Source: a virus | Strand: one strand, 5' to 3' | Length of the DNA: 64,000 nt | IMG/VR virus record: IMGVR_UViG_3300017774_006254 | Span: 1 to 64,000 of that record | The notes under the pieces: generated by a model | Seen by the model: the letters and a program-made list of their open reading frames with translations, nothing else | Databases searched by the model: none | What the model was told of the DNA's origin: nothing | Shown: in pieces, positions 21,089-48,393 of the stretch | Numbering within the stretch: the first letter of the stretch is position 1 | Layout: every line of letters starts with the position of its first letter | Program-made: the position numbers and the translations under genes

Positions 21089-21700
21089 TCATCCCCGCGC
21101 GAGCGACATGACCGTGTATCCCGCGACCAGTCCCAATCCCGCAGCGCCACCGACGACAGCGCCGAATACCGGATGCTTCGTCTTGTTGCCGACATAGGCG
21201 CCAGCAACCAGCCCTCCCACGATCGGGGTCAACCCCATCAGCAGTCTCACGCTGCCTGGGAGCGACCCGATCGTCCTGGCCACCGTAGTGGGAGCCTGTC
21301 GGGGTGCCTGCGCAAACATTGGAGCGAGGTCGTTCGAGTACGACGCAGATGCTGGCGCGGCGGCCTGCCCCAGCGACCTCGGCCGCTCAATCTGTGGCAC
21401 GTCGAGCCGTGGCGCCCAAGATGGTCTTCCAAGAACACGTTGAGCTGCGGCGTTGAAGATAGACGGAGCGCTCACGCGCCCTGCGGGAGGAGGCGCCATC
21501 TCCGTACGTGTGTAGCGCGGTTCTCGGTTCCCGGAGACCACGCCAGGGGCTCTTGGAGCCATCTGAGTCTGCGTGTACGAAACCGGCACGTAGGCCGTCG
21601 TCGCAGGTGGTGCCATGGGCGCCAAAGAGACCGTCGGCTGCGACGATGGCGTTTGGTATGACGAGGGAGGGCGAAGTTGACCAAGGCCGCTGTAACTCAT
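21089..21700 (-). CDS. Pro-rich membrane protein of the MSY/GLG type
   Basis: Starts MSYSGLGQ; two C-terminal hydrophobic helices. Confidence 0.65.
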   Translation of the reverse strand: MSYSGLGQLRPPSSYQTPSSQPTVSLAPMAPPATTAYVPVSYTQTQMAPRAPGVVSGNREPRYTRTEMAPPPAGRVSAPSIFNAAAQRVLGRPSWAPRLDVPQIERPRSLGQAAAPASASYSNDLAPMFAQAPRQAPTTVARTIGSLPGSVRLLMGLTPIVGGLVAGAYVGNKTKHPVFGAVVGGAAGLGLVAGYTVMSLARG

Positions 21701-21740
21701 CCCCAATCGTCGCTTGAAATCGACGACGGCGCAATCCAGC

Positions 21741-22004
21741 TCAGGTCGCCTTGATGCAGTCGATCGCGGGCCAAACGTCAGGCACCCCGGGCCTGCCTTT
21801 TACAGCAACCACAAGCCACGTCTGCTTGGCGAGCTGCTGAACCCTAAGAACCGTGCGTGGGTGTTTCAGTTTTGAGAAGTAGACCTTGTCACCGCAACGG
21901 ACCGTCTTGCGGTCCGCTACTCGCGCTCGGTCTCGAACGAGACCAAACCCAAACCGCACAAAGTCCGCACCTTCGAGGTTCCGCTTCACGCGTAGCGCGG
22001 TCAC
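21741..22004 (-). CDS. hypothetical protein
   Basis: MTALRVKRNL start; coupled ORF. Confidence 0.45.
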   Translation of the reverse strand: MTALRVKRNLEGADFVRFGFGLVRDRARVADRKTVRCGDKVYFSKLKHPRTVLRVQQLAKQTWLVVAVKGRPGVPDVWPAIDCIKAT

Positions 22005-22269
22005 GAATGTCTCACGAGAAAATCGTCAATCCATACTGTACTGTTGAGCTTGTGAGCTTTGGCTCCAGCACGTGATTCGGCTTCGAGCTTGATGGCGCAT
22101 TCGTGTGTGCACGCATGCCCCATGACCTTGCTCCCCTTTGACTCCTCATCTAGGTCAAGCCACAGGCGACGCAGAAGAATCGCCTGAACTTCAAAGAGCC
22201 ACGTGCGGCAACATCCACACTGGACCGCAGGTGGCCCTCCAAGTCGAGAAAGCGAGTCGATCGCTACGC

Positions 22270-22755
22270 TCATGGGCACTTGATGCACTTCGCTGCGGGA
22301 TAGGTGTCCGTCAAGGTTGAGTTGCGACTGCGGTACACCACGAGGTCTCGTGTCGTCTTACCGGTGACATGAATCTCCGCGATGCTACGCCCAGAGAGTC
22401 CTCGTCCGCCTTCTGCTGGAACAAGAACCTTGTCGCCGACATGAACGATGCGCCCAGCCGAATCCTTCGCGGAAGTAGCAAGGCCTACGAGCGGTGGTCT
22501 GGATGCAGGCTTCTGGGGTGAGCGCTCTGTAAGCTTGCTGGCCTTCAAAAGAATCTCAGCTGTGCGGATGAGTCTCTTCTTGAAGAACGTAGCATTCCTC
22601 TCATTCAGGCGACCCATGAGCGAAGACGCGAAGCCTCTAAAAAGCTCAAGCTCTTCGGAGTCTGTGCGAGAAGAACGCTTTGACTTTCGAAGCCTGTCGA
22701 CGAACTCGTCGTCGACAAAGCCGAAGATTGATTCAAGAACTTCTCTCTTGTTCAC
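22270..22755 (-). CDS. hypothetical protein, possible SH3/KOW-like C-terminus
   Basis: DSAGRIVHVGDKVLV motif. Confidence 0.5.
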   Translation of the reverse strand: MNKREVLESIFGFVDDEFVDRLRKSKRSSRTDSEELELFRGFASSLMGRLNERNATFFKKRLIRTAEILLKASKLTERSPQKPASRPPLVGLATSAKDSAGRIVHVGDKVLVPAEGGRGLSGRSIAEIHVTGKTTRDLVVYRSRNSTLTDTYPAAKCIKCP

Positions 22756-23147
22756 GACAGCAGTCTCCCCTCCGGCATGAGCGCGAACGGGGCCACACCT
22801 TCGATCTTCACGTACTCAGGACCAAGAGCGTTCATGCATGCGTCACTGTCACATGTGTTTGGGCGCTCGTAGATGGTGAACATGCTCGACTCCGGGGGCC
22901 TGCTTGCCGTCCGGTAGCAGTAGTAGGTGGAGTCAGGATCGTCTTCCACCGCGCGCTTCTGCGGCTCTTGGAACTTGCCCAAGTCCACTGATGTCTCAGC
23001 GGTGGTGATGAGCTTTCGTCTGTTCACGAGCCTGGCTGGGCCATCCACCCACAACCAGCCATCACGCGTGCACGTTCCAAGTTTCCGGTGACAGGCGGCG
23101 CACTTGACAACTACTACGCGAGCGGGCTCGTTAGGCTCGTCGCTCAT
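22752..23147 (-). CDS. Cys-containing hypothetical protein
   Basis: CAACHRKLG...CDSDAC. Confidence 0.55.
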   Translation of the reverse strand: MSDEPNEPARVVVVKCAACHRKLGTCTRDGWLWVDGPARLVNRRKLITTAETSVDLGKFQEPQKRAVEDDPDSTYYCYRTASRPPESSMFTIYERPNTCDSDACMNALGPEYVKIEGVAPFALMPEGRLLS

Positions 23148-23779
23148 GGAAGAAGCTTCCCTGCGTCGAACTCAGCGAACGCAGCGCGCATGCGCGTGCA
23201 GTACCCCGGGTTCGGCCCTCCATTGTATCGACGAACGAACTCCTCGACGTTGCCTTCCTTCGCGGCTGCGAGCGCTTTTGGGTTGTCCAACAGCCACGCC
23301 GCGAGAAGCTGGTCAGACACTTTGACCGGGTTCGATTTGAAAGCCTGGATGGCTGTCACGGCAGCGTACGAAGTTGTGATTGGCTGCCCGATCACGTGAG
23401 AGAACGAACTGCCGAGCTGTTGGTACGCGCCCCACGATGTCGAGATGACCGCGTTCGCCGCGTGAATCTTCTCGGCGAACTCAAACGCGGCCTTGTCGGT
23501 CTCGCTCGCAATGGAGGACGCTGACCGGTTGGCTCCGCTTCTTGTTCTTCCGGGGGTATAGGGAACCTTCCCTCCGGCACGGATAGCTTCCCTCATCTTC
23601 ACAGCAGATGCCGGAACCATGTTGCGTGGAATCGTCACGACCATGTCCGGCATGTGCCGCTTGAAGAGGTGCGGCTCGAAGCGAATTGCCTTTGGGTCGC
23701 CTCCGCTCTCGACAGCGCGAACGCCAACGAGGAAACGAATCGGACATCCTGTTCTCTTGGCGACGTCTGCAAGGCTCAT
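23144..23779 (-). CDS. N-acetylmuramidase (DUF3380-like) endolysin or virion lysin
   Basis: AVESGG, IRFEPHLF, STSWGAYQQLG, FVRRYNG; start refined to MSLADVAK. Confidence 0.85.
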   Translation of the reverse strand: MSLADVAKRTGCPIRFLVGVRAVESGGDPKAIRFEPHLFKRHMPDMVVTIPRNMVPASAVKMREAIRAGGKVPYTPGRTRSGANRSASSIASETDKAAFEFAEKIHAANAVISTSWGAYQQLGSSFSHVIGQPITTSYAAVTAIQAFKSNPVKVSDQLLAAWLLDNPKALAAAKEGNVEEFVRRYNGGPNPGYCTRMRAAFAEFDAGKLLP

Positions 23780-24393
23780 GGCTTCTCCTCGAAGTCGACG
23801 ATGGTTGATTTTCCAGACATCTCTTCGAAGCGCAGTCCGCTCTTGAAACGGACCGTGTGTCTCGGGCCTCGAAGCATGATGTGGTCGATTGGATCTTCTT
23901 CCGAAGACCCCGGGGCGAACGACTTGGCGCACTGCCAATTGGCGCGGATCACCTGCCAAAGATCTTCTTCAGCTGCGACGCGGGTTCCGCGGACGCTTGA
24001 GATCTGAGACATCTCACCGAAGACGCGCTCTTTGGTTGTCGGAATGACGAAAGAGACACAGGCGTGGTATCGCGCCTGCCAGCCTTGGTCGCCAGCCCAG
24101 GCCTCGACGCGGTGCCGGAGTCCAGCGTTCTCCAAGAAGTCGTCAAGCGACTTGGCCGTGTCCGGCGTCACATCCAGCGGCACCAGATCCTTCTCCAGCT
24201 TTCTAGCCGAGTCATGATAGTCACGACCAGCTTCTGGACGGCCTTTGTCAAACTCCGCATCTCCCTCGCGACGAAGCCAAAGAATCCGCTCCATAGTACG
24301 GATGTTCCCCAGCGCTCGGACCTTTCGAGCGCCCTCGCTCATCTTGATGTGCTGCTCTCGAAGTTCATCGAGCTTCTTCTGGTCGTAGTTCAT
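23776..24393 (-). CDS. hypothetical protein
   Basis: 205 aa, GGAG RBS. Confidence 0.6.
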   Translation of the reverse strand: MNYDQKKLDELREQHIKMSEGARKVRALGNIRTMERILWLRREGDAEFDKGRPEAGRDYHDSARKLEKDLVPLDVTPDTAKSLDDFLENAGLRHRVEAWAGDQGWQARYHACVSFVIPTTKERVFGEMSQISSVRGTRVAAEEDLWQVIRANWQCAKSFAPGSSEEDPIDHIMLRGPRHTVRFKSGLRFEEMSGKSTIVDFEEKP

Positions 24394-24400
24394 CGGACTC

Positions 24401-24982: not shown

Positions 24983-25037
24983 GCCCCATCTTACACACTC
25001 TCGGGTGTCTGACAATGGCGCGTGATACGCTCTGTAG

Positions 25038-25598: not shown

Positions 25599-25680
25599 AG
25601 AAGGCCGCCCAGCAAGAAAGACTGAGCGGCCTTTGGTTTTAGTTCCCAACAACGAAGGAAGAACGAGACTCGTGATCTTA

Positions 25681-25878
25681 CTACATCACGGCGAGGATGC
25701 CACTGAGGCCGCTCAGAGACGGGGCCTGCTCCTGGCGAAGACGAGACTGAGCCTGACGACGGGCTGCCTCTTGCTGAGCCGCCATGCGCGCCAAGAATGC
25801 ATGTTGCGAGGGTAGCGCCCGACGCCCTTGCGAGGTTGGGGGCTGCTGGTTCGAGGGGACGGTACGGTGGTAGCTCAT
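25681..25878 (-). CDS. small MSY-type protein
   Basis: MSYHRTVPSN...LSGLSG; extended -10 TGATACAAT lies 6 nt before the ATG. Confidence 0.5.
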   Translation of the reverse strand: MSYHRTVPSNQQPPTSQGRRALPSQHAFLARMAAQQEAARRQAQSRLRQEQAPSLSGLSGILAVM

Positions 25879-27708: not shown

Positions 27709-28335
27709 TCACACGATCAGAGACCGAAGTAGAGCCGCTGCATTGCTCTCGTTCACCAGCCACCCGGTAAGCTCTACGCTGAAGAACCGCAGATCGATGT
27801 TCGGCTCTCGAAAGATCGCGACCTTAGCTATGATTTCGCTATTCGGCGATGCGTAAGCCGCAAAGTTCTGTCCGACAGGAGGCAGGATCGAACCCGAGAA
27901 CGGATAGATTCTACCCTCTCCCGGGCTGACGCCAACCGTACCAGCGGCTCCGCTGTTGCCCAGTGAAGCAAGCACAGCACCCTGCGGGACCGGAGCGGAG
28001 TTTGTATTGAAATTCGTGAGCCCTTGGTTTCCAATCAACAGACTGAATCCCAGGGTCCCCGTAGTACGCGAAGGTGCCACCATCTCGAAGTCGTCGACGC
28101 CAACTCCAGAGTGCTGGAACGCTTTGAATTCGGCCGAACGAAGGACAATGACCTGGTTCCTTTCGACGACCAATTTCATAATCGTCAGCTCGGTAGGGAA
28201 CACTGCTCCGATACCTGGCTGAATTGGATTCGGCATCTCCTTGAAGTAGACGCGCTGGTAGAACGTGGTCTCTTTCTGCGGAAGCAGAGACGAGAATCCG
28301 CCTACTTGTCGAAAGGGAGGGGGCGCCATCATCAC
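27709..28335 (-). CDS. putative beta-sandwich (jelly-roll-like) minor capsid protein
   Basis: Alternating beta strands (KLVVERNQVIVL), terminal strand VELTGWLV; lies near the capsid candidate. Confidence 0.45.
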   Translation of the reverse strand: MMMAPPPFRQVGGFSSLLPQKETTFYQRVYFKEMPNPIQPGIGAVFPTELTIMKLVVERNQVIVLRSAEFKAFQHSGVGVDDFEMVAPSRTTGTLGFSLLIGNQGLTNFNTNSAPVPQGAVLASLGNSGAAGTVGVSPGEGRIYPFSGSILPPVGQNFAAYASPNSEIIAKVAIFREPNIDLRFFSVELTGWLVNESNAAALLRSLIV

Positions 28336-29342
28336 ATCGCAGGCGACTGCGCCTGGAGAATCTTGTAGCCAACGAGCGTGATGTAGAGCGTGCCACCGAG
28401 TGCAACGATCATACGGCCGCTCTGAGCGGGATCGTTCGCGATCGGGTCAGGCGGCGGCGAGACGCCACCTTCCTGGAATCCGTTCGGCAGTGCTGCGTAG
28501 TTGATCTCGGCGAAGCCCAGGTCGCGCGTGAGCGTTGCGGCCACCTTCACCGACGAGCCGCGTTCGTAGAAGTCCGAGACGGGCAAGTAGAGTGGCCGAT
28601 CGAACTCGGAGAACATGAAGCGGCTAGGAATCGGGATCTGGTTCTGACGTTGACGGTCAACGCCGTCGTCGGAGAACTCAAACAGGAAGTCGATCGTTCC
28701 AGGGCGAAACGTCTGAACTGCTTGGGCAGCTGCTGTGTTCGCTGCCGCAGCTGGGATTCCACCAAGGCCGACGCCCAGGTACGCGCCAGAGAAGGGGTCT
28801 GCGGTCGACGCGGTCGGACGGAACCTGCCCGAGAGAGGCGTGATGACTTCCGTGCCAGCGGGCTGGTCGTTCGGACGACCAGGAGCGTCACCAGTGCCTG
28901 CGTACGGGCCAATGGAGTACGTCTTGAGAAGGAACGCGCTCATCAAGGTCGTGCAGACGAACGGGCCGTCCTGGCTGATCTGCTTGCTGTCGACGAGACG
29001 CGACCCAGCGAGAGAGACCGACGGCGAACTCTGGCCAGGAACGTTGATCTGCGTACCAAGAAAGTAAGGCACCCTCTTCCCTGGGATGTCCTCGATGTAC
29101 CTGATACGATCTGCGGCCTTCTTGAGCGCGATGCCCAGGCGCTTGATCTCCATCTTGTCGTCAGCGGCGGCGGCGGCCAGCTCCTGATAGCGCTGCTGCA
29201 CAGCCTCCATCTGTGCTTCCGTGCGCCTCTGCTTTGAGGCCAGTTGACGGGCGAACGCTTCCAATTCCTGTGACATCTGCTCTCCAGAGTTCGGGCCAGC
29301 CGCTGGACTCCTTGTCCTTGGCCAACCGGAAGAACTACTCAC
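28332..29342 (-). CDS. putative jelly-roll-like capsid/penton protein with an N-terminal coiled coil
   Basis: Coiled coil, then QISQDGPFVCTTL...PLYLP...ITLVGYKI; alternative ATG at 29276 has an RBS. Confidence 0.5.
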   Translation of the reverse strand: MSSSSGWPRTRSPAAGPNSGEQMSQELEAFARQLASKQRRTEAQMEAVQQRYQELAAAAADDKMEIKRLGIALKKAADRIRYIEDIPGKRVPYFLGTQINVPGQSSPSVSLAGSRLVDSKQISQDGPFVCTTLMSAFLLKTYSIGPYAGTGDAPGRPNDQPAGTEVITPLSGRFRPTASTADPFSGAYLGVGLGGIPAAAANTAAAQAVQTFRPGTIDFLFEFSDDGVDRQRQNQIPIPSRFMFSEFDRPLYLPVSDFYERGSSVKVAATLTRDLGFAEINYAALPNGFQEGGVSPPPDPIANDPAQSGRMIVALGGTLYITLVGYKILQAQSPAM

Positions 29343-32092: not shown

Positions 32093-32905
32093 TCAGAGGA
32101 CGTCGCGGGAGTGGATGCCGTCGATGAGGTACTTGACGTCCTTCTCGATGTCATCGCGACCCGCCGTCGACAGGCCGGTGCCCGAGGCGCCCGACGCGAC
32201 GATCGTTCCGCCAGGACCGTTGCCCCACGCGTCGTTGTTCGGCACGAGGCCGTTCAACTGATCCACAACCGACGCGCCCGAAGCCTGGCCGATCGGCGAT
32301 GCGATCGCGATGACGACGAAGCCCTGACGAGGCGGAATGAGGATCGGACGCGCAAGACGCATGAGCGCCGAGCTGGTGGGCACGCCGTTGTTCGCGCGGG
32401 GAAGGCGCGAATCAGCGAAGAAACCATCGAGACCACCAGCAAACGGCGTGTACGCCGTGTACGTGGTGAGCTGGGGCTTGTCACCAGCTTGGAACTGCCA
32501 GAACAGCTGGTTCTGGGTCTGGTGGTAGAGCTTGTGCACGCGGTTGATGCGGTCTCCGGAGACCGTGCCAACTGCGCCAACCGGCGTCGCGTTGCCCGCG
32601 TTGATCGCAGGGAAAGTCTGGTCCGCGCCGGTCGTCGAACGCGGCGACTCGGTATTGAACCTGAAGTACGTCCAAACGCGGACCGCGAGGGTCACGAACG
32701 TCTGGTCGGAGGGGAAGAAACCACCGGTCGTCAGGTTGCTGACGGCGATGTCCGCACCCTGCTTGGTGAAGAGCTGCGAGCGGCTCTGCACGGCCCCGAA
32801 CACGCCCACGTTCGCCTGACGGAGGTCGCCCTGACCGTCTACGCGAAGGAGGGAATCGTAGAACGGCTGATGGATGCGTTCCCTGGTACCAACAATTTTC
32901 GGCAT
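32093..32905 (-). CDS. putative major capsid protein (single jelly-roll-like)
   Basis: 270 aa from MPKIVG; QPFYDS...LF...SNLTTGGFFPSDQTFVTLAVRV...PILIPPRQGFVV...YLIDG. Strong codon bias, structured leader and downstream hairpin. The fold is inferred, not shown. Confidence 0.55.
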   Translation of the reverse strand: MPKIVGTRERIHQPFYDSLLRVDGQGDLRQANVGVFGAVQSRSQLFTKQGADIAVSNLTTGGFFPSDQTFVTLAVRVWTYFRFNTESPRSTTGADQTFPAINAGNATPVGAVGTVSGDRINRVHKLYHQTQNQLFWQFQAGDKPQLTTYTAYTPFAGGLDGFFADSRLPRANNGVPTSSALMRLARPILIPPRQGFVVIAIASPIGQASGASVVDQLNGLVPNNDAWGNGPGGTIVASGASGTGLSTAGRDDIEKDVKYLIDGIHSRDVL

Positions 32906-33067: not shown

Positions 33068-33883
33068 TCAGCCGAGCATTCCGGAGAAGATGTGACGAGC
33101 GAACACGCCGCCCGCGTAGCCCTGATCGCCCGAAGCGAAAGACTTCGAGACGCGGCGGACCTGAGGCCTGGACTGCATGGGAATCGCGCCGTCCGTAGGC
33201 GTGATGGTGGTGACCGCTTCCATGCGGTTCATCGAGCTGTCGACTGCACCTTGGTCACCGGGCTCGCCAAGGTCGCCGATGCCAGAGATGCCGTCGCCAG
33301 AGTCGCCGAGGCCGCTCATCGGCTGATCGACGTACTCACCGATGCCAGCCGCGGCGTACATCGTGCCGAGACCAAGCATTCCCTTGTAAGGCGCGCCCGC
33401 GTGGGAGATGTCGTATCCACGACCCATCCCAGAGAGCATGCCTTCGTTGTAGTAGCCCGCCGTAGCCGTTGGAGCCGCAGTCGCCGGAGCGCTTGCGACA
33501 GCCGGAAGGATGGCAGCTGCTGGTGAGCCGCCGAGCATCGGCATGTTGCGAATGAACGATTCCGATGCAGCAAGCCCCGCTCCGATCACCGCCGCATTGG
33601 CCATTGGGCCGCTGACGAGGGAAGGAAGCGAACGCTGGGCAGCGAAGTAGGCCGGGATGAGAACGGCCGCAGCGGCAACCTTGCCATACCGTGGGTCGGC
33701 AAGCAAGCTGATTTTGCTGGAGGCGATGTTTCCAGCGACACGGGTGGCGACAAAGCCAACCGTGCCACTGAGAACCGGACTTACGACGTCCCGCACGATG
33801 TCAGAGTCCAAGAAATTCTTGAGAATCCGACGGACTCCCCGCTTCGAGCGGGCATTTTTGCGACTGGTACGGCGACGTGCCAT
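33068..33883 (-). CDS. core/membrane-associated structural protein, paralog of the C-terminus of 33931-36696
   Basis: Basic N-terminus, hydrophobic helices, GEYVDQPMSGLG, C-terminus GYAGGVFARHIFSGMLG. Confidence 0.65.
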   Translation of the reverse strand: MARRRTSRKNARSKRGVRRILKNFLDSDIVRDVVSPVLSGTVGFVATRVAGNIASSKISLLADPRYGKVAAAAVLIPAYFAAQRSLPSLVSGPMANAAVIGAGLAASESFIRNMPMLGGSPAAAILPAVASAPATAAPTATAGYYNEGMLSGMGRGYDISHAGAPYKGMLGLGTMYAAAGIGEYVDQPMSGLGDSGDGISGIGDLGEPGDQGAVDSSMNRMEAVTTITPTDGAIPMQSRPQVRRVSKSFASGDQGYAGGVFARHIFSGMLG

Positions 33884-38752: not shown

Positions 38753-39142
38753 TTATCCACGCACTTGGATTCGAAGCATAGCTTTCAGTAGTGCGCGCAG
38801 GCCCGGAACCAAATCGAGCTTCAGCGCGTCTTCGGCATCGGCCCAGCGCATGTCGCTCGATTCCCAGTTGGGTTTGGGAGTGCCAGTCCACGCTGTGCAC
38901 ATGTACGTCGTCAGAGTGCCCCATTTACCTCTGGACTCGGCCACTTTTAAGAGCCCTTTTACTCGCAAATTAGCTTCTTCGAGGGTCTCGCGGATGACTG
39001 CCTGTCGCGGTGTTTCTCCGGGATCGACCTTCCCCATGGGGGTATTCCACCGGTCCGGCATCCATGGGGCTGTCGAGCCTCGACGCAGGAGAAGGATGCG
39101 CCCTTGCTTGTCCACAAGGATGCAAGCTGCGGCGTCCGTCAC
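38753..39142 (-). CDS. NUDIX hydrolase
   Basis: ILLLRR...W..PMGKVDPGETPRQAVIRETLEEANL NUDIX box; GTG start at 39142. Confidence 0.9.
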   Translation of the reverse strand: MTDAAACILVDKQGRILLLRRGSTAPWMPDRWNTPMGKVDPGETPRQAVIRETLEEANLRVKGLLKVAESRGKWGTLTTYMCTAWTGTPKPNWESSDMRWADAEDALKLDLVPGLRALLKAMLRIQVRG

Positions 39143-39423
39143 CTGACCGCTCGTCGTGAGTTCTTCTTCATGTTCGACGCGCCGAAAAAGACAGCGGCTG
39201 CGACGCCCACAAGGCCTGCCCAGCCAAGCACCACTGGCCACCCAATAGCCTGCCGAGGAGGTGGCGTTGGGTCTGAAGCTTGCCCAAGAGCCCGAGCTTG
39301 AGCAATCTCCATTGGGGAGTGGCGACAAGGTGCCGTTGAGATCCGCAACTCGTGGGGTCCCATACAGCGACACCTCGACGTCACGACACCGCACCGGCAT
39401 CTCTCGATGTAGTGGCCCATCAC
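39139..39423 (-). CDS. tail-anchored membrane protein, Cys-rich N-terminus
   Basis: CRC..CRC, ALGQ, TM, MKKNSRR. Confidence 0.6.
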   Translation of the reverse strand: MMGHYIERCRCGVVTSRCRCMGPHELRISTAPCRHSPMEIAQARALGQASDPTPPPRQAIGWPVVLGWAGLVGVAAAVFFGASNMKKNSRRAVR

Positions 39424-39719
39424 TTCCTTCGGAAAGCGAAGAAAGCTCCAACGCCAAGCAGGAGCGCTCCACCGATGAGGTACGGGGTGTACGAGACCTC
39501 AGGCGCCTGTCCGTATGGGAGTCCGGTCGCGGGGTTGATCGCGCCGTACGGCATGCCTGTCGCCGGGTTCATTGGAACCTGGCCTGCGGTTGCGGAAGGA
39601 TCGGCAGCTGGAGGGGTTCGCCCCGCTGCGATGAGCTGCGCCGCAGCGGTACCCACTGCGGTCGTAATTGCCGCGACATCCTCAGCTGTGGTTCCCATCG
39701 ATCTTGCGTACGACATCAT
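39420..39719 (-). CDS. tail-anchored membrane protein (MSY type)
   Basis: MSYARSMG; NPATG(M/L)PYG twice; TM followed by RRK. Confidence 0.65.
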   Translation of the reverse strand: MMSYARSMGTTAEDVAAITTAVGTAAAQLIAAGRTPPAADPSATAGQVPMNPATGMPYGAINPATGLPYGQAPEVSYTPYLIGGALLLGVGAFFAFRRK

Positions 39720-39910
39720 CTACTCCTTCGGTTGCGTTTGACACGACGACGAGCAACTGCGTATGCCGCCCAGCTCAAGGCAACCGCTGCGACTCCAAGT
39801 GCGATTGTACCGCCGATGACAGTGTTCGCCACAGACGTGACGGTCTGCTGAATGGCATGCTCAACAGCTGGCGTGGACTGCCCAAGAGCGCGAATGTGTT
39901 GGTAGCTCAT
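39716..39910 (-). CDS. small membrane protein (MSY type)
   Basis: MSYQHIRALGQ; TM; VKRNRRSR. Confidence 0.6.
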   Translation of the reverse strand: MSYQHIRALGQSTPAVEHAIQQTVTSVANTVIGGTIALGVAAVALSWAAYAVARRRVKRNRRSR

Positions 39911-40539
39911 TTTCGCCTGTTCCTTCGCACTCGTCCACGAGGGCTGTAAGCAAGAGACCGCGCCGTCCGCTGCGACACGTAAACGGCCGCCCCAACAAGA
40001 CCAATGGCTACCACAGCCGCAGAGCCGATGATGAGAGGCGAGGTGGGAGGTGTCAGACCAACCGTGTCTGGTGGATCTTGCGGAGATGTGCGCGGCGGAG
40101 GATCGGGGACCGGACCGACCGGATACACGTAAACGTCATCCCGAAGGGGAGGCATGATGATCCTGTATCTGCGCAGAATGATTTGTGATCGCGGGCTGAT
40201 CTCCAACGAGGCCCGAAGCAAAGCATCTCGAATGGAGGTCGCATAAGCCACAGCGGGACGCTCACTCGTCGGCCTCCAGCGCGCATACAAAAAACCACCC
40301 GTGACCCACCTGACATCAAGAACAGTCCCCATAGAAGACAGCGTAGACCGAACGATCGCTTTTGCCGTCTCAGCCTGCTCTGGGGTGATGTTCCTGACGA
40401 CCAAGTTTGCGTCGAGAGCTGGGACAAACCCATAAAGCCCAACGCCAAGCCTCGTGACGCCAACAGAGAGACCTTGGACCTCAGTTGTGTTTGCTGTCGG
40501 AATGGAAACCGGAGTTTCGCCAGAAAGTGCGTAGCTCAT
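39907..40539 (-). CDS. tail-anchored membrane protein (MSY type)
   Basis: Start refined to MSYALSG; TM; VRRNRRK. Confidence 0.65.
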   Translation of the reverse strand: MSYALSGETPVSIPTANTTEVQGLSVGVTRLGVGLYGFVPALDANLVVRNITPEQAETAKAIVRSTLSSMGTVLDVRWVTGGFLYARWRPTSERPAVAYATSIRDALLRASLEISPRSQIILRRYRIIMPPLRDDVYVYPVGPVPDPPPRTSPQDPPDTVGLTPPTSPLIIGSAAVVAIGLVGAAVYVSQRTARSLAYSPRGRVRRNRRK

Positions 40540-41102
40540 CGAAGCCTCCTGCGGCGGTTGAACGTGAGCTTGGACAGCGTCTTGATTCTCGCGTAGTTGT
40601 TCAACAAGTACCCCGCACTCACAGCGCCTGCGATACCGATGACAGCCCAAGCCATGAGCGTGTAGTTCGCCGAACGAACAAGATTTGGTTGCTCATCCTC
40701 AGAGAGCCGAGCGTACTGCGTAGGACTTGATCCCGTCAGCGCTCTGTATCGATCTTCGAGCAGGTTGTACCTGTTGACGTACTCCTGGGCCGGAGAGATC
40801 GATCCTTGCGCCCACCATGTAGAAGCCGTGTGGTTGAACGCGAGCCACTGATTTCGCAGCTCGTCCCAGTCAGCGAGAAACCGCGTGCCGACAGCGTTGG
40901 CTCGAAGCGCAGCTCGCCGTGGGATGATGTCACGGTCAAGAGACGTGATCTGCCCGTTGATCTGGTTCAACCACGCCCTGACTTCGCCAGGAAGCCAAGC
41001 CAGCCGACTCGGAGTCACCAGTTCGCCAAGAGACGAACGATTCGAGCGCATCGAGCACCCGCAACCGAGCCCATGCACGTGCGGGCGCAGTGCGTAGCTC
41101 AT
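40536..41102 (-). CDS. tail-anchored membrane protein (MSY type)
   Basis: MSYALRPHVHGLGCGCSMRSN; TM; LTFNRRRRLR. Confidence 0.65.
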   Translation of the reverse strand: MSYALRPHVHGLGCGCSMRSNRSSLGELVTPSRLAWLPGEVRAWLNQINGQITSLDRDIIPRRAALRANAVGTRFLADWDELRNQWLAFNHTASTWWAQGSISPAQEYVNRYNLLEDRYRALTGSSPTQYARLSEDEQPNLVRSANYTLMAWAVIGIAGAVSAGYLLNNYARIKTLSKLTFNRRRRLR

Positions 41103-41644
41103 GACCGCCTCCGCCTCCTGCGGTTCGCGCGCACCGGTGCTCCTGCAAGCATGAAGTACGCACCCAAGCCAACGAGAGCCGTGCCACCAAGGATCCACGG
41201 AAGGAGGCTCCTTCGACTCACCTCGACCTCAGCAGGCTTCTCCTCCAAAGCTGACTCTGAGGTCGCCGAAGTGTTCCCTTGGGGCCGTGGCGTGACCGTT
41301 GGATCGGCGACCCGCTGGAGAGCCTCAAGACGGGTCGCCAGAGTCTTGGAAACGAGAACACGCGGCGTAACTGCGATGTTCGTTGGGAACGTGGACGGCA
41401 CTGGCAGTCCTGGTCCCGCTTCCGTCAGACCAGCAATCGTTAGGGGGCCTGCACGACCGTCGACCGCGATGGAAGCCTGCCCCCGAGAAGCGCGGAAGGC
41501 GTTGACGGCACGTTGAGCCCAGGTGGCCGTGGTGTCCCAGTACCGAGCGTCAGGTGCGTATGCGCGCCGTTCCCGATCGGGGCCCAAGGCCGTCGATGCG
41601 GTAGGCACGAACGAGTAGTCGATTGCTTGACCCAGATACGACAT
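41099..41644 (-). CDS. tail-anchored membrane protein with a peptidoglycan-binding-like motif
   Basis: MSYLGQ; WAQRAVN...IAVDGRAGPLT resembles PG_binding_1; TM; VRANRRRRRRS. Confidence 0.6.
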   Translation of the reverse strand: MSYLGQAIDYSFVPTASTALGPDRERRAYAPDARYWDTTATWAQRAVNAFRASRGQASIAVDGRAGPLTIAGLTEAGPGLPVPSTFPTNIAVTPRVLVSKTLATRLEALQRVADPTVTPRPQGNTSATSESALEEKPAEVEVSRRSLLPWILGGTALVGLGAYFMLAGAPVRANRRRRRRS

Positions 41645-42415: not shown

Positions 42416-43492
42416 TCAGTCCCATCCCATGTCGAGGCTTCGGACTTCCCCGGGCTTCGCGATGCGCACGTTCTTTGGCTTCAACGTGACGGTCATCCCG
42501 CCGCCCCTGTGGGTATTCGGCTTGCCCATCTCAGTGGCCAGTCGCGTCGCTTCAGTTTTGCTCGAAGCCAAGGCAGTGTTGTATCCGCCGCCGACCCAGT
42601 TCCACACCCACAGCTTCTTGGTGCTCTTGGGACGCGGGTTCCGAGTGACACGTCGCGAACTGGACTTTCGCTTCCGCTTTGGAATCGAGAAGGTCGTCTC
42701 TTGGGTTTTGATCTTGCAGCCAGGCCCGTGGCCGCGCTTGCCCAAGTCGGGCTTGCCACATGACGGACACGGAAAACTGCCAGCGTTCATGCGCATGCGT
42801 GATCGGCGCCTCGACCCGCGCCGACGCCTATTTGGCGTAACCACCCTCTTCGGCTTCAGGGCGAAGAATGCAAGCGCCCCCACAGCGAGCGTGCCTCCCG
42901 CGAGAACACCCCACATCGGGATGCCTCCAACGGTCTGCGTGAGGAAGGTTGGTTCAGCACTGCCGTCGTAGTACGGCTGCGCTCCAGGCATAGCGCCGGG
43001 AATGGTCGCTGGAGTGGTCGCTGGGGCCGGAAACAAGCTCGTCAGCAAGCCCGTCACCGCCGAGGTCGCAGCTGCCCCCGCATTCGCACCGCTGGAAGCA
43101 CCAGGGCTACTGGATGCGCCAGGAGACGAGGGAGGCGACCCGTACGTCCAGGCGTGCGTGTTTGTGACGCGCGATCCTGAAAGCAGAGCTTGAATCTGCG
43201 CGCCCATGCGAGCGAAGGCCTGATTCACAGCTTCGCCAGTCAGCGCACCCGACGCACGGACGGTCACCCAGAGACTGCCCGCGGGGACGCCACCAGGCGC
43301 AGAAGGGCCGCCCCAACCACTGCCGACGATCGTCCCTGGGAACGAAGCTGCGGCGGTACGCAAGGCCTGAAGCTTCTGCTCAGCCGTGCCGTTGGCTTGA
43401 ACAAGGAATCCGCCGACGAATTGCTGACCTGGCACGTAGCTCGCGCCCGTCGCCAAACCACCAAGACCACTGAACCCTCTTGTGTAACTCAT
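42416..43492 (-). CDS. membrane protein (MSY type) with a basic, Zn-knuckle-containing tail
   Basis: MSYTRGFSGLG; TM; VTPNRRRR, MRMNAG, CPSC..H..C, VTRNP. Confidence 0.65.
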   Translation of the reverse strand: MSYTRGFSGLGGLATGASYVPGQQFVGGFLVQANGTAEQKLQALRTAAASFPGTIVGSGWGGPSAPGGVPAGSLWVTVRASGALTGEAVNQAFARMGAQIQALLSGSRVTNTHAWTYGSPPSSPGASSSPGASSGANAGAAATSAVTGLLTSLFPAPATTPATIPGAMPGAQPYYDGSAEPTFLTQTVGGIPMWGVLAGGTLAVGALAFFALKPKRVVTPNRRRRGSRRRSRMRMNAGSFPCPSCGKPDLGKRGHGPGCKIKTQETTFSIPKRKRKSSSRRVTRNPRPKSTKKLWVWNWVGGGYNTALASSKTEATRLATEMGKPNTHRGGGMTVTLKPKNVRIAKPGEVRSLDMGWD

Positions 43493-43848
43493 CGCCTGCT
43501 CCTTGGGCGCCTGTTGGCGCGAACTTGCCTCGACGGCTTCAGGGTGTTCCATGCGAACAGCCCAAAGCTGCCAATCGACAACGCGAGTCCAATCAGCGAG
43601 TAACGCTCCATCCGCTGGGCTCGCTGCTCTTCCTTCGACAACTCCGTGACTTGGCCAAGGTGCGACGACTGAAGGTACGGACGACGCGGTCCGAGATGCT
43701 CAGACCGAAGACGAGGCGGCTGCGTGGTGTAGATGAATTGCGACACCGAGCCCCGCTGACGCTGCGGCTGACTGAGGTCCGCAAATACCCACGGGTTCGT
43801 AACTCCCCATGGCTGATAGCCAAGGGCTCTGTTCACTCGGTAGGTCAT
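43489..43848 (-). CDS. tail-anchored membrane protein
   Basis: MTYRVNRALG; HLGQ; TM; VRANRRPRSRR. Confidence 0.6.
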   Translation of the reverse strand: MTYRVNRALGYQPWGVTNPWVFADLSQPQRQRGSVSQFIYTTQPPRLRSEHLGPRRPYLQSSHLGQVTELSKEEQRAQRMERYSLIGLALSIGSFGLFAWNTLKPSRQVRANRRPRSRR

Positions 43849-44117
43849 CACTCCTCCTGACCGCGGCGAATGCTCTTCGCGACGTTCTTCTTGATACGAG
43901 GCATGAGCCAACCCCAGACCGCGTAGCCAATTCCAATTCCCGTGGCAACTCCCAATGGAATCGTGAACGCAGGGCGCTTGTACCAAGCAAGGGCGCTGGT
44001 ATCGACTTGCCCAACGCCGTACAAGGGGACAACGCCTGCTGCCGCTGTGCGGACGCCGGTCATGTTCTGTGCGTAAGCCTCACGAGCTTGAGGCGTGACG
44101 AAGTCCTGTGCGTTCAT
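43848..44117 (-). CDS. tail-anchored membrane protein
   Basis: LYGVGQ; TM; IKKNV. Confidence 0.6.
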   Translation of the reverse strand: MNAQDFVTPQAREAYAQNMTGVRTAAAGVVPLYGVGQVDTSALAWYKRPAFTIPLGVATGIGIGYAVWGWLMPRIKKNVAKSIRRGQEE

Positions 44118-45541
44118 CGAAGTCCAGCCTTCCTCGCAAGCTTCTTGGCGTTGCGCGTGATCGACTTGCGGTTGCTCCAGGCGAAGTAGCCACCAATGCC
44201 GATCGCTGCTCCGATCAGCAAGCGTGTCGGCGTGATGAACGAAGGCGAGGCGGGAGCCACGGGCTCTGCTGTGACCTGGCCCATGCCAGCGACAGCCGCC
44301 GAGCTGAAGAGTGCCCCGAGGTCACCCTTCATTGCATTCTGGTCGCGCACCAGCGGACCAAGATGCGCCGCCGCCGCCGCCTGCATCGGAGCGCGAGTGC
44401 GCCTTACGCTCGTCGACAGACGATCGAGGTTCGGAAGCGATCCTTTTGACCGAGCGACCCCCTGAAGGTCTTTGACCGTTGCGTGCATGATGGCATGCGC
44501 GAGCGTGTCTTCGAGCGCCGACTCGGGCTGCTGCCCAAGGTCCACGAGCCGCTTGGCTGTGCTGCCAGTGCGAGCCGCTGTTCCAGCCCCGAGAGAGTCA
44601 GCTGCCTGAGCGACGAACCTCGACCGCTCCTTGGGAGCCAAAGACCTCGCCTCCGTCATGATGAGACGAGCGGCCTTCCGTCCGAAAGCTTCGACGTGGC
44701 TGCGTGGACCAGACTCGCTCTGACGCATCTCTGGCACAGGCTTGGAGACGAAGGGCGAGTACCCAGGCTTGTACGAGTTGACGTTCGTGGCCAGCGTCAC
44801 GCCGCCAGCCGAAGGCTGAACGACACGCCACTCATTCGCGGTTGTGTCCCACATCTCACTCTGTTGGACGCCAAGATCGTCTTCATCCGCGAGGTAGGCA
44901 GGTAGCGCGTACTGGTTTGCGAAGGAGCCGTCACGCGGACGCCACGTAACCCCTTCTTCCATGTCAAACACGCCGCTTCCGATCGTGCTCTGTGTCGAGT
45001 CGTTGAACTCGTAGCTCTCGCGATCGTACAGCATGTCAGAGGGGATTCCCTCGTTCGATGGCTGCTGGTTGCGGTTGCCATGCCAGGACGCTGGGGGAAC
45101 CTGAACGTCATCGTGGACTTCGAGAACTTCTGGCTCGTTGTGCATATCGTCTCGCGCGAACTTTCTGGGCGGGCTCATGTCAACATCGCCGAGGTTTGAG
45201 TCTCGGAGTGCCATGTCCGTCCGTTGCATCGAATGAGGGCGGTAGCCTACCGCGCTTCCTGGGCCCCAAGGATACGAGCCGTAGGTGGTCGCAGCCGCGT
45301 CCGGACTGTCCACGTCGTCTGCGATCTTGAATCGAGACATGCCTTCGACATCTGGAGCTGGAGCTGCGCCGGGGTTCCTTCCTGGAGTCGACAGTGTGTC
45401 TTCCTGAAGGTCGTCATCGAGGAACGATGAACCTTGCCCATTGGGACCACGGGCGTAGTCCTGCGCGTCAAGGTTCGCGTTGCCTCGCATGGTCGGAATG
45501 GCCATGTCGCCATCATCGTCAAACCCGTAATCGTTACTCAT
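44114..45541 (-). CDS. acidic, tail-anchored structural protein
   Basis: Acidic disordered N-half; helical domain shared with the 46252 and 46902 proteins; VAGMGQ; TM; ITRNAKK. Confidence 0.7.
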   Translation of the reverse strand: MSNDYGFDDDGDMAIPTMRGNANLDAQDYARGPNGQGSSFLDDDLQEDTLSTPGRNPGAAPAPDVEGMSRFKIADDVDSPDAAATTYGSYPWGPGSAVGYRPHSMQRTDMALRDSNLGDVDMSPPRKFARDDMHNEPEVLEVHDDVQVPPASWHGNRNQQPSNEGIPSDMLYDRESYEFNDSTQSTIGSGVFDMEEGVTWRPRDGSFANQYALPAYLADEDDLGVQQSEMWDTTANEWRVVQPSAGGVTLATNVNSYKPGYSPFVSKPVPEMRQSESGPRSHVEAFGRKAARLIMTEARSLAPKERSRFVAQAADSLGAGTAARTGSTAKRLVDLGQQPESALEDTLAHAIMHATVKDLQGVARSKGSLPNLDRLSTSVRRTRAPMQAAAAAHLGPLVRDQNAMKGDLGALFSSAAVAGMGQVTAEPVAPASPSFITPTRLLIGAAIGIGGYFAWSNRKSITRNAKKLARKAGLR

Positions 45542-45553
45542 GTCTCTCCTCAC

Positions 45554-46252
45554 TCACTTCAACAGGAAGTATCCGACGCCGAGGGTGGCCACAACTGCGC
45601 TTCCGCCCATCAAATAGAGGCGAATCTGCGCACTGCGCGCGTTGGCCTGGTTGGCTGATGCCTGAGCCGCTGCCGCTGCCTGAGCCATCTGAAGGTTCGC
45701 CTGAGCTTGCGCCGCCGCCGCCGCTGCCTCGCGACTCTCGCGCCCACAGTCAAGCTCTCCTCCAGCAATAGCCGATCCGATGCTTAGTACACCGCCTACG
45801 ATTTGACCGTACACGGGAATGACACTGGCCACGCCACCGACCGTCGACGCGCCGCTCGCAATGCTACATGCGGTAGCTCGGTCATTCGCGGAGAACGCGC
45901 CTAGCGCCTCTGCTCCGTGGATACGTGCCGCATCCATCCGAAGCGACTCGATACCTTCGCCACGCTTGAAGTTCGCGATGGCAAGTCGGATCGCGTCGAA
46001 CAAAGACTGGTCGTTGCCTTTTCCAGACGATACGATCTCCTGGTACATCCGATTGACATGGCGAGCCATGCCAGGAGCGATAGCGTCCAGGCTATTGCTG
46101 ATGAATCTGCGGCGTACATCAACTGGCTTCCGTGCCGCTTTGAGTAGTAGCTGCGAAGCGCGCAGTGATGCGTTCGCAAGTACCGCGTCGTGTTGCGCCG
46201 CGGAACCTACCGTCATGGCCCTTGACGGGCGAGCTGCTAGTGAGTACGTCAT
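45554..46252 (-). CDS. tail-anchored membrane protein, paralog A
   Basis: ASLRASQLL...DQSLFDAIRLAIAN; C-terminal TM. Confidence 0.7.
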   Translation of the reverse strand: MTYSLAARPSRAMTVGSAAQHDAVLANASLRASQLLLKAARKPVDVRRRFISNSLDAIAPGMARHVNRMYQEIVSSGKGNDQSLFDAIRLAIANFKRGEGIESLRMDAARIHGAEALGAFSANDRATACSIASGASTVGGVASVIPVYGQIVGGVLSIGSAIAGGELDCGRESREAAAAAAQAQANLQMAQAAAAAQASANQANARSAQIRLYLMGGSAVVATLGVGYFLLK

Positions 46253-46902
46253 TACTTCAGAGCGATCTTGGCTGCGACAGCTAGCGCCAAAATCCCAGCG
46301 ATTCCGACGCCCGCATAGAGTACCGTGCGATTCGTCTGCGCGCCCGTGTTTAGCCTTGCCATCTCTAGGGCGGCGGCGGCCTGCTGCGCGGCCACTTCAG
46401 CTTGTAGGCGAAGGGTCGGGAGGTTGCAATTCCCAATCGCCGCTCCAGCATTCGCTCCTCCGACGATGGAGGTGTCTGCTCCAGATCGAAACGCTCCAAC
46501 CCAGCCGCCCGTGCTCGCTGAGAGCGAGGCACCTGTGCAGGCAAACGTGTTCGCATCCGCGGCGAAGTCGCCAAGCCCCGACATGCCACGAGCCGCCTGA
46601 CTTCCAGCCCATTCCTGTAGGCGATTGGCGAGCACGAGCCGAATCGCGTCGAACACCGCTTGATCCGGAGTGCGCGTGCGAGAGATGATGCCGATCTTTG
46701 CGATCGCTTCGTCTCCCATCTTTGGCCACAGGTTGTTCAGGCGGTTGCGAAGCCAAGCCATTCTGGATGAAGCGTCAACCTTGGCCATGTGGAGCATGAC
46801 TTCGCTCGCCATGAGCGAAGCTTTGCTCACGAACGGATCTGTCTGAGCAAGCTGCCCCGAGACGACTTGCCCGAGCCCAGCCATTGCTTGTGCGTAGCTC
46901 AT
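46252..46902 (-). CDS. tail-anchored membrane protein, paralog B
   Basis: MSYAQAMAGLGQ; ASLMASEVM...DQAVFDAIRLVLAN; MSGLGD; C-terminal TM. Confidence 0.7.
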   Translation of the reverse strand: MSYAQAMAGLGQVVSGQLAQTDPFVSKASLMASEVMLHMAKVDASSRMAWLRNRLNNLWPKMGDEAIAKIGIISRTRTPDQAVFDAIRLVLANRLQEWAGSQAARGMSGLGDFAADANTFACTGASLSASTGGWVGAFRSGADTSIVGGANAGAAIGNCNLPTLRLQAEVAAQQAAAALEMARLNTGAQTNRTVLYAGVGIAGILALAVAAKIALK

Positions 46903-47234
46903 CGACTTCTCCGACGCGACTTTCGGCCGCTTCTGTTCTTGGTGACACCAGGACGCGCAAAGCCTTGCGTGAACGCAATCACCGGGACAACAACAGGGAG
47001 CATCGCGCCCCCAAGAAACCACGCGAGCGTCCACCCGAGGTCGCCGCGATTCCGCTTGTACCCATGGTACGCAGAAACCGCTGCGCTGATAGTCGAGAGT
47101 CCCCAACCAGCAACCACCATCGCTCCTGTCGGTCGGAACGTGACGGTGATCGGAGACGGAACTGAATCGATCGCCTGTCCGAACGCTGAGAGGCCGATTC
47201 CGGGACCGTCGTAGTAGTTCGTCTTGGTGGTCAT
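46899..47234 (-). CDS. two-TM membrane protein
   Basis: AYHGYKRN between two hydrophobic helices; VTKNRSGRKSRRRSR tail. Confidence 0.65.
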   Translation of the reverse strand: MTTKTNYYDGPGIGLSAFGQAIDSVPSPITVTFRPTGAMVVAGWGLSTISAAVSAYHGYKRNRGDLGWTLAWFLGGAMLPVVVPVIAFTQGFARPGVTKNRSGRKSRRRSR

Positions 47235-47235
47235 A

Positions 47236-47832
47236 TCAGTCAATCTCGAAAATGGTGTATTGCTTGATCCGACGAAGCATATTCCCTGTCCGGCGCCCCG
47301 CAACAGGATCGAGGACCCACCACTGCTTCGTGCGGGGATCTTGAGCACGCGCAAAGACGTGCGTATGAATTTTCGGCTCGCCAGCCAACTGCGGCTTGAA
47401 GCCACAAGTGACAAACTGACCTCGGGCCCCGATTGTCAGACAAGATGTAGCAATCGCGAGAGCGATGTCGTCACAGTCGCAAGCGGCACGCCCCGCAAGG
47501 GCATCAGCCAGAATACGGTCGGGACTGCGAATCAGCTCAACGTGCAGAGGATCGCGCGTGTACCTGGTTGCGTTTCCCCACCAGCGGGAGATCGCGATGC
47601 ACTCGCTCGAATAGTCCTTCGGCCGCACGTTGTTGATGATCTGTTCCGTGTGTCTGCGGAAACTGATACTGCGCTCCCCCTGCAACGCATTCTGCACCAT
47701 CACTCGCGGGTCGACGAGACCCTTTGCGAGGTTGATCATCACGGCAACAGTGTGATCAGTACCTCGGTATGGTTCCGTGGTACCAACTGCGTTGTTGTAG
47801 GTCGGTGAGTATGAGTTTGCTCTGAGCTGCAT
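47236..47832 (-). CDS. transglutaminase-like (papain-fold) cysteine enzyme, putative maturation protease
   Basis: RYTRDP..VELI.SP, CDCDDIA (Cys), HTHVF (His), WWVLDP (Asp). Confidence 0.8.
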   Translation of the reverse strand: MQLRANSYSPTYNNAVGTTEPYRGTDHTVAVMINLAKGLVDPRVMVQNALQGERSISFRRHTEQIINNVRPKDYSSECIAISRWWGNATRYTRDPLHVELIRSPDRILADALAGRAACDCDDIALAIATSCLTIGARGQFVTCGFKPQLAGEPKIHTHVFARAQDPRTKQWWVLDPVAGRRTGNMLRRIKQYTIFEID

Positions 47833-47881
47833 GCAGATACCTGTGCCCAGGCGCCCACATGAAGTCTCGCACGATCTCTAC

Positions 47882-48058
47882 TCAGCGCGCAAGGAAACGA
47901 CTCGACCTTGCCTTGTCCCTGTCACCTGGCCCTGGACGCTCCATCCGCTCGAAGCGAGCCTCAAGTTCTCGTCCAATTGCCTCGCCTTGTCGCATAAGCT
48001 CTGCCACTTCCGCTCTCGTGAGAGTGCGCGGTTTTGAGACTGGCGAGCCTTGCGTCAT
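47882..48058 (-). CDS. small hypothetical protein (below the ORF-track cutoff)
   Basis: 58 aa, MTQGSPVSK..., ATGA-coupled to the upstream ORF. Confidence 0.4.
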   Translation of the reverse strand: MTQGSPVSKPRTLTRAEVAELMRQGEAIGRELEARFERMERPGPGDRDKARSSRFLAR

Positions 48059-48393
48059 CTGGTCGACATCTTCTTGCCGTCACGCTTCAGGAATTTCGGA
48101 GTCTCTGTCTTTCGTTCCATGATGGGACGCGCTTGCGCAATCAACTCCGCACGCACCGAGATCGGTCGCTCGCCCTGCCACGTAGTCACAAGGGTGAACT
48201 GGCCGCCTTCCGGTATCTCGATCGACCGCATCAGCTTCGACGGTATCGTGTAGGTACTACCGTCGTGAAAGCGAACGTGCGCCCGCTCCCCTTGGTACTT
48301 GACAACCATTGCTGGTTTTCGTTCCTCACGCGGGGGAGCGGGCGTCGCATAGCTGCCAAGCCCTCGAAGACCCTTGGAAGTCGGGGCAGACAT
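48055..48393 (-). CDS. hypothetical protein (small beta barrel)
   Basis: LRGLGS near the N-terminus. Confidence 0.55.
   Translation of the reverse strand: MSAPTSKGLRGLGSYATPAPPREERKPAMVVKYQGERAHVRFHDGSTYTIPSKLMRSIEIPEGGQFTLVTTWQGERPISVRAELIAQARPIMERKTETPKFLKRDGKKMSTR

Follow-up and report, generated by a model that had tools for sequence, protein, structure and literature searches.

The virus record IMGVR_UViG_3300017774_006254 of IMG/VR comprises 161,502 bp (161.5 kb) with direct terminal repeats and a G+C content of ~60%, and the stretch studied here, referred to as the window, is its first 64 kb (64,000 nucleotides). About a dozen unrelated membrane and core proteins encoded in it carry a Gly-Leu/Met-Gly(-Gln) tag, and most of the sites are kept in orthologues from up to 14 related contigs. 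The motif has the core G-[LM]-G and is a true short linear signal, present throughout the lineage, that marks the proteins of the virion module. A first-pass annotation of positions 21,089 to 48,393 had described it as hydrophobic-x-G-[LMIV]-G (h-x-G-[LMIV]-G), likened it to the cleavage consensus of adenain, the adenovirus protease, and proposed a Gly-directed maturation of virion precursors as in adenoviruses. Here we propose, with somewhat less than even confidence, that the tag addresses proteins and, in addition, serves as a recognition or cleavage site for a 198-amino-acid (aa) enzyme with a transglutaminase-like fold, which is encoded in the same module.

All of the 16 pentapeptides listed in the first-pass annotation were found in their respective genes, as were the four variants ALGQ, YLGQ, HLGQ, and SLGE. 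The 39 proteins (7,964 aa) encoded between 21 and 48.7 kb contain 23 copies of h-x-G-[LMIV]-G, whereas shuffling of whole proteins gives an expectation of 3.5 +/- 1.8 (none of 300 shuffles reached 23) and shuffling within blocks of 12 or 20 residues gives 5.0-5.3 (none of 400). The motif is therefore four- to six-fold enriched over both global and local nulls. Without the two repeat-bearing paralogues, 14 copies are still observed against 3.6-4.1 expected from block shuffles, a count that none of 400 shuffles reached. The rest of the genome shows no enrichment (7 observed, 12.7 expected), and the control pattern G-[AST]-G is not enriched in the region either (12 observed, 17.5 expected), which argues that Gly richness is not the cause. 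Furthermore, 20 of the 23 sites lie outside predicted transmembrane (TM) helices, a check that the first-pass annotation had suggested. Given this distribution and the shuffles, neither TM helices nor a Gly-rich composition, the explanation that the annotation had itself named as a possible refutation, accounts for the pattern. The counts are to be read with the caveats that three of the 23 sites do lie inside TM helices, that nine are not independent because they stand in tandem repeats of two paralogues, and that the repeat units make the reversed pattern just as enriched. In related viruses, the core G[LM]G or [LM]GQ exceeds a local-shuffle null by 2-3.4 times in seven of nine loci, and G-[AST]-G is again not enriched.

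The conserved sites are islands in variable low-complexity linkers and are shared by 3 to more than 30 homologues. They usually occur either after an M-[ST]-Y start or in the linker upstream of a TM helix, so that their reported placement near N-termini or before TM anchors holds for the flexible N-terminal or pre-TM segments of structural-module proteins. The M-[ST]-Y start is found in at least 15 proteins of this genome and in many more of the relatives, and it is separated from G-[LM]-G by a spacer of 0-25 variable residues, with Q often the next residue. This genome and the related loci contain 96 open reading frames (ORFs) of at least 50 aa that begin with M-[ST]-Y, and in 44 of them G-h-G or h-G-Q appears within 32 residues. 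In most tags (32 of 37), L or M stands in the middle, and Q is the commonest residue to follow (13 of 37). Two positions before the first Gly, ~60% of the N-terminal tags have a hydrophobic or aromatic residue, and most homologues of a 479-aa protein described below have Ala there; thus the hydrophobic first position of the original pattern survives as a preference, not as a requirement. A nucleotide-level cause of the M-S-Y starts was considered and rejected. The Ser and Thr codons of the start vary (AGC, AGT, TCG, ACC, and ACG) and the upstream DNA is not conserved, which together indicate selection at the protein level.

Many of the tagged proteins continue with a TM helix and end in an Asn/Arg-rich tail; farther out among the relatives, the tags are still present and the Arg tails fade. 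Genes in the 21-52 kb region are encoded on the minus strand, and 4-nt overlaps of start and stop codons are frequent. Between 39700 and 47000, AGG, AGA, and GGA-rich codons encode part of the Arg-rich C-terminal tails and also supply the Shine-Dalgarno sequence (AGGAG) for the gene that follows (e.g., upstream of 41102, 40539, 43848, and 46902), with 4-nt ATGA start/stop overlaps, so the Arg tails and translational coupling share bases. A second and smaller set of M-S-Y proteins with TM helices and Asn/Arg tails is encoded far from the main cluster, at 104-118 kb of the genome (e.g., starts at 104522, 108279, 115033, and 117175), where the strict pentapeptide is not enriched.

All individual sites given here are on the minus strand. 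The 216-aa membrane protein at 46252-46902 begins with an M-S-Y..MAGLG-Q tag (MAGLG-Q at 46870-46884), and tags of the same kind occur on the orthologues and paralogues of relatives; an internal MSGLG-D site in its linker (46570-46584) keeps S-G-L-G in three of four genomes. N-terminal tags are also present in the 358-aa protein at 42416-43492 (M-S-Y..FSGLG, with FSGLG at 43460-43474), the orthologues of which have M-[ST]-Y..G-L-G, and in the 181-aa protein at 41099-41644, in which M-S-Y-L-G-Q (41627-41638) corresponds to M-S-Y-A-G-L-G-Q or M-S-Y-H-G-L-G-Q in orthologues. The 188-aa protein at 40536-41102 carries VHGLG-C-G-C after M-S-Y (41064-41078); H-G-[LM]-G-C-G-C is conserved, and its orthologue in the related locus L006 reads H-G-M-G-C-G-C after a longer spacer. 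The tag of the 64-aa protein at 39716-39910 contains the variant A-L-G-Q (39878-39889). Farther away, the 203-aa membrane protein at 21089-21700 begins with M-S-Y-S-G-L-G-Q (21680-21694); this protein has no orthologue in the related loci examined, and an identical tag starts proteins in other genomes. In the soluble 112-aa protein at 48055-48393, LRGLG stands near the N-terminus (48355-48369), and h-[RK]-G-[LI]-G-x-Y is kept in four genomes.

Sites upstream of TM helices are exemplified by the 479-aa protein at 44114-45553, in which VAGMG-Q (44279-44293) lies ~25 aa before the helix. Its G-M/L-G-Q/E is conserved in more than 30 homologues as an island ahead of a variable Ala/Pro/Ser/Thr linker. 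The 89-aa protein at 43848-44117 has LYGVG-Q before its helix (44010-44024; P-L-Y-G-[VL]-G-Q kept in three genomes), and the 119-aa protein at 43489-43848 has the variant H-L-G-Q ~20 aa before its helix (43651-43662; L-G-Q kept in four genomes). The remaining sites are found in two paralogues that share GEYVxQPMxG[LM]G repeats, with 2-5 copies among orthologues. In the 271-aa protein at 33068-33883, LSGMG, MLGLG, MSGLG, and ISGIG occupy the repeat region (33275-33436), and the copy number varies in orthologues. The 921-aa Arg-rich protein at 33931-36696 has three repeats of this type in its C-terminal part (34279-34386; 2-5 copies in orthologues), and its motif instances are YAGMG, VNGIG, MNGMG, and MSGMG, together with VTGMG. 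Every repeat copy in the 921-aa protein and its orthologues has M or L two positions before the first Gly. The C-terminal halves of the two proteins are paralogous, consisting of a hydrophobic segment, the repeats, and a conserved K-G-Y-A-G-G..F-A-R-H-L-F end, and the 921-aa protein also contains ~500 aa of protamine-like Arg/Ser blocks that vary greatly in length and sequence among orthologues. Two instances were dismissed as chance matches. YAGMG of the 921-aa protein (36238-36252) is kept in no orthologue, and YLGVG (28767-28781), which lies inside the folded region of a conserved 336-aa protein (28332-29342), is replaced in orthologues by I-G-P-G, I-G-G-S, or I-G-P-R. A protein-atlas search with the 336-aa protein returned only unnamed viral clusters.

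The assignment of the tagged genes to a structural module follows from the 270-aa protein encoded at 32093-32905 on the minus strand, which is likely the major capsid protein. This is the most conserved structural gene (61-82% identity in relatives), and its AlphaFold2 (AF2) model, with a predicted local distance difference test (pLDDT) score of 73, forms a jelly roll. Its best structural neighbours are SPV1 (Z 7.1), HCIV-1 (5.4), HHIV-2 (5.3), and VP17 of P23-77 (5.0), all of which are single jelly-roll capsid proteins from membrane-containing viruses, and PRD1 P3 and PBCV-1 appeared only in weak Foldseek rows. These Z values are modest and speak for a likely jelly-roll fold rather than for a particular lineage. 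The family alignment has no stretch conserved enough for a genome scan, and distant capsid-protein homologues, which were sought for co-variation of tag and enzyme, were found only on contigs of 1.4-1.8 kb. A related-locus search with P0150 and P0128 as queries gave no match.

The candidate processor of the tag is encoded at 47236-47832 on the minus strand, among the most conserved genes of the module (62-83% identity). In this 198-aa protein, the residues D119-C120-D121, H158, and D175 are invariant in 25 homologues with identities down to 59%, and together with the AF2 model (pLDDT 80) they suggest a transglutaminase-like enzyme with a Cys-His-Asp triad. Foldseek matched the model with a probability of 1.00 to 3isr, 3kd4, LapG, PNGase, and TgpA. 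By VIA-align, the Z value was highest for the putative protease 3kd4 (13.1), followed by factor XIII, TG2, and TG3 (~11), the putative protease 3isr (10.9), PNGase (9.4), and LapG (8.2-8.5). When searched against PDB sequences, the family profile gave only spurious matches to designed Kelch-repeat proteins. The closest predicted viral structure in BFVD is I1ZBG7 (304 aa, E 1.6e-8, 21% identity), which may point to a cultured relative. Residues 1-24 of the enzyme, a disordered segment (pLDDT under 50) with the conserved pattern L-R-A..Y..P..Y-N..G in which R4, Y8, and Y12 are invariant or nearly so, may be a self-addressing or regulatory peptide.

DvhG and LapG, members of the bacterial transglutaminase-like cysteine proteinases, cut at the small-residue motif [T/A/P]-A-A-G (PMC13090378; PMC10990149), and in DvhG the calcium-site residues D316 and E318 flank the catalytic C317 (PMC13090378). 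By sequence signature, D119-C120-D121 of the viral enzyme parallels D316-C317-E318 of DvhG. This acid-Cys-acid signature and the small-residue sites of DvhG and LapG tip the balance towards a protease. The genomic setting links the enzyme to the tags, as tagged or membrane-anchored genes come after that of the enzyme in all ten related contigs for which downstream genes are listed, and by coordinates the same order is seen in the window.

From this we infer that the enzyme recognises the tag and cleaves it. As proposed, the 198-aa enzyme would trim N-terminal leaders at the tag, release ectodomains from the TM helices that anchor them, and, as the particle matures, cleave the two Arg-rich core proteins in their repeat region. 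Such a system would be functionally parallel to adenain sites or to T4 capsid-targeting leaders, with an independent origin and an enzyme of another fold. The proposal is supported by a motif that is real, conserved, and located in flexible segments, by the fold and triad of the enzyme, and by the linkage of its gene to the tagged genes. Several points weigh against it. A pure docking motif would account just as well for the conserved M-S-Y start and for the way in which the repeats are organised. The enzyme matches neither Peptidase_C93 (PF06035) nor Transglut_core (PF01841) at E up to 10, nor any family by hmmscan at 0.05, and one distant homologue does carry a precomputed PF01841 match. Its N-terminus is polar and has no hydrophobic stretch, i.e., it has no signal peptide typical of bacterial transglutaminase-like proteases. 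The fold is also common to true transglutaminases, with a similar Z (~11), and to PNGase, and is thus compatible with cross-linking or amidase chemistry. The complex predicted for the enzyme with residues 140-210 of the 271-aa repeat protein scored 0.02, which speaks neither for nor against binding.

A less likely explanation, though one that deserves serious attention, is that nothing is cut and that the Tyr and G-[LM]-G fit into a pocket on a protein that belongs to the capsid or scaffold or that shapes the membrane. The motif would thereby bring membrane and core proteins into the particle, with avidity from the tandem copies. Such non-catalytic docking would explain why the M-S-Y start itself is conserved, which would be needless in a disposable propeptide, and it agrees well with the variable copy number (2-5) in the two core proteins and with the location of the motif in disordered linkers, as is typical of binding motifs. 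However, it leaves unexplained why the inspected related contigs have a conserved Cys-His-Asp enzyme at the head of the tagged cluster, and the small-residue flanks of the motif resemble known protease sites. If the enzyme does act on the tag, its chemistry could instead be cross-linking, in which the Gln that follows G-[LM]-G or that of the GEYVxQPM repeats would serve as acyl donor and isopeptide bonds to Lys would stitch the membrane and core proteins covalently to the shell. The frequency of Q after the motif, its conservation at several sites, and a similarity to factor XIII, TG2, and TG3 as high as that to putative proteases argue in this direction, and the reactive Gln of transglutaminase substrates is typically located in flexible termini. 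Nevertheless, we consider cross-linking improbable. Many conserved sites lack the Gln altogether (G-L-G-D, G-M-G-A, G-L-G-S/N-Y, and G-L-G-C-G-C), no acceptor site was identified, and the D-C-D signature resembles that of Ca-dependent proteases, not that of animal transglutaminases, in which the catalytic Cys stands in the context G-Q-C-W.

The relationship to adenain itself can be judged more firmly. Adenain cuts at sites of the form (M/I/L)XGG↓X or (M/I/L)XGX↓G, e.g., IVGL↓G (PMC4246237; arrows mark the cleaved bond). As the first-pass annotation had recognized, the viral pattern fits the type-1 site (M/I/L)-X-G-X↓G; many copies are exact, most clearly those in the repeats. This agreement, along with the jelly-roll capsid protein and the Arg-rich core proteins, would be expected if an adenain/Ulp1-type (clan CE) system had been inherited in common with adenoviruses, polintons, and virophages. 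Yet the clan CE protease that the annotation proposed to look for did not appear: in hidden Markov model (HMM) profile searches of the 161.5-kb genome, without a structure-based screen of ORFs, neither PF00770 (Peptidase_C5) nor PF02902 (Peptidase_C48) matched at E up to 1, and PF02902 matched in none of four complete relatives. The PF00770 search is weak when taken alone, since its control matched nowhere. In addition, the capsid model best matches single and not double jelly-roll proteins, and at the viral sites L or M nearly always occupies P1, with P4 variable. Common inheritance is thus very improbable. A PHROG 'protease' match proved to be a ClpX-type zinc finger at 157 kb, and a PHROG 'peptidase' match overlaps a 301-aa ORF at 96.5 kb that is probably the M23 peptidase of Pfam; neither is a maturation protease, and no other protease of the maturation type was detected among the matches listed in the Pfam and PHROG scans of the genome. 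The only protease-like enzyme of the module has the transglutaminase-like Cys-His-Asp fold, with a triad order opposite to that of adenain. Hence, of the proposed Gly-directed maturation as in adenoviruses, the real, conserved, and adenain-like pattern remains, but the missing clan CE gene leaves analogy instead of homology. There is equally little to be said for the view that the sites share no function and result from recent paralogy, from glycine-zipper TM helices, or from a composition rich in Gly and hydrophobic residues. It is true that the tandem repeats of the two paralogues contribute nine sites, that three sites fall in TM helices, and that two are not conserved. However, local-composition shuffles never reach the observed count even when the repeat proteins are left out, G-[AST]-G is not enriched, and sites are kept across genomes in which the flanks have diverged. 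The local shuffles, the cross-genome conservation, and the enrichment in relatives refute this view.

The virus that employs this signal apparently belongs to a previously undescribed lineage of large (~150-300 kb) tailless viruses, and a literature search found no described virus group of such a kind. Scans of 30 proteins of the region with Pfam and PHROG gave almost no matches, the exceptions being a NUDIX hydrolase (38753-39472) and an N-acetylmuramidase (23144-23959). The 114 further proteins of the genome that were scanned include replication, methylation, glycosyltransferase, integrase, LexA-like, M23, and SprT-like functions; families here are those of the top 25 matches of each genome-wide scan. 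Among these listed matches for ~150 proteins, terminase, portal, HK97-type capsid, and tail families are absent. Neither the 198-aa enzyme nor the jelly-roll protein found a match by tblastn in 50,697 deposited phage genomes, and the relatives are IMG/VR contigs of 72-298 kb. Fragments of relatives have been binned in metagenome-assembled genomes (MAGs) of Acidobacteriota, Clostridia, Nannocystaceae, Planctomycetota, Patescibacteria, Lentisphaeraceae, and Saccharibacteria. A host assignment from these bins was abandoned, as they represent seven different phyla, and the MAG labels probably reflect mis-binning and are unfit as host evidence. The Shine-Dalgarno sites, the muramidase, and the M23 peptidase suggest that the host is probably bacterial.

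Three further features were observed outside the window. A ResIII/DEAD helicase at 81383-84000 of the genome (L001:17383-19998) is split by an intein that contains Hint and LAGLIDADG homing-endonuclease domains. A 624-aa protein at 74613-76487 (L001:10613-12487) contains a Cas12f1-like TNB domain (E 2e-9). At 67363-69911 (L001:3363-5911), outside the structural module, a P-loop ATPase with the Walker A motif G-A-P-G-I-G-K-T adjoins a DUF2201 putative metallopeptidase/VWA protein, a pair that resembles the MoxR-VWA pair.

Joining all of these elements gives a broader picture, which we hold a little more tentatively than the proposed role of the tag. An uncharacterised clade of tailless, membrane-containing jelly-roll viruses of 150-300 kb with bacterial hosts may address at least a dozen unrelated proteins by a two-part grammar, made up of an M-S-Y...G-L-G-Q leader or linker tag and a TM helix with an Asn/Arg-rich tail, and a LapG-like Cys protease may cut the Gly-Leu-Gly tag, so that these viruses would have independently invented a Gly-directed maturation in the style of adenoviruses. 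If cleavage is true, a simple sequence rule would allow the virion proteome of these viruses to be listed from sequence alone. If the enzyme cross-links at Gln instead, a new mode of capsid stabilisation would be at hand. Under either reading, the pair of tag and enzyme can be tested in vitro without culture of the host.

Several known systems share individual features with the one proposed here. Several of the viral proteins have the succession of motif, TM helix, and Arg-rich tail that is familiar from sortase and exosortase substrates. However, the motif is placed 15-25 residues from the helix or far N-terminal instead of abutting it, and no sortase-like gene was seen. African swine fever virus (ASFV) pS273R (GG↓X) and poxvirus I7 (AG↓X) process core proteins in eukaryotic hosts. 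They set a precedent, in that large DNA viruses with internal membranes process core polyproteins in a Gly-directed manner, but their enzymes are of clan CE and their hosts are eukaryotic. In T4, a tailed phage of the HK97 fold, a short N-terminal capsid-targeting leader is attached to unrelated internal proteins, directs them into the particle under assembly, and ends in the consensus of gp21, the serine-type prohead protease that removes it by a cut after Glu. A shared N-terminal leader on otherwise unrelated proteins makes T4 the nearest logical parallel, although the tags described here are also found at internal positions, in repeats, and on membrane proteins.

Among enzymes, the proteases of the LapG/DvhG type (BTLCP, Peptidase_C93) come closest, and they share with the viral enzyme the transglutaminase-like (papain-related) core fold, the Cys-His-Asp triad, and acidic residues on both sides of the Cys. 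Their cut at the small-residue motif [T/A/P]-A-A-G, which frees a protein from a membrane-side anchor, is a further likeness. In contrast to these proteases, the enzyme studied here has neither HMM-level similarity (its Z to LapG is 8.2-8.5) nor a signal peptide, is encoded by a virus, and would have many putative substrates instead of one or two adhesins. With adenain, the likeness lies in the sites. For many copies the pattern is identical (M/L at P4, G at P2, and G at P1' in the repeats), and the sites are found on several unrelated virion and Arg-rich core precursors of a virus with a jelly-roll capsid protein. The differences include the enzyme, since no clan CE gene was found and the candidate has a transglutaminase-like fold with a Cys-His-Asp order, and the site itself, in which L/M almost always precedes the last Gly, Gln often follows, and P4 is variable, neither L/M nor Gln being a feature of adenain. 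Moreover, the host is probably bacterial, and cleavage is only proposed. The likeness is therefore a functional analogy at most. Processing of virion precursors at consensus sites by a viral cysteine protease is known from adenoviruses, virophages, polintons, ASFV, and poxviruses, and in prokaryotic viruses such processing is known mainly through the serine prohead proteases of tailed phages. If cleavage at the Gly-Leu/Met-Gly tag is true, it would represent a convergent evolution of Gly-directed maturation.

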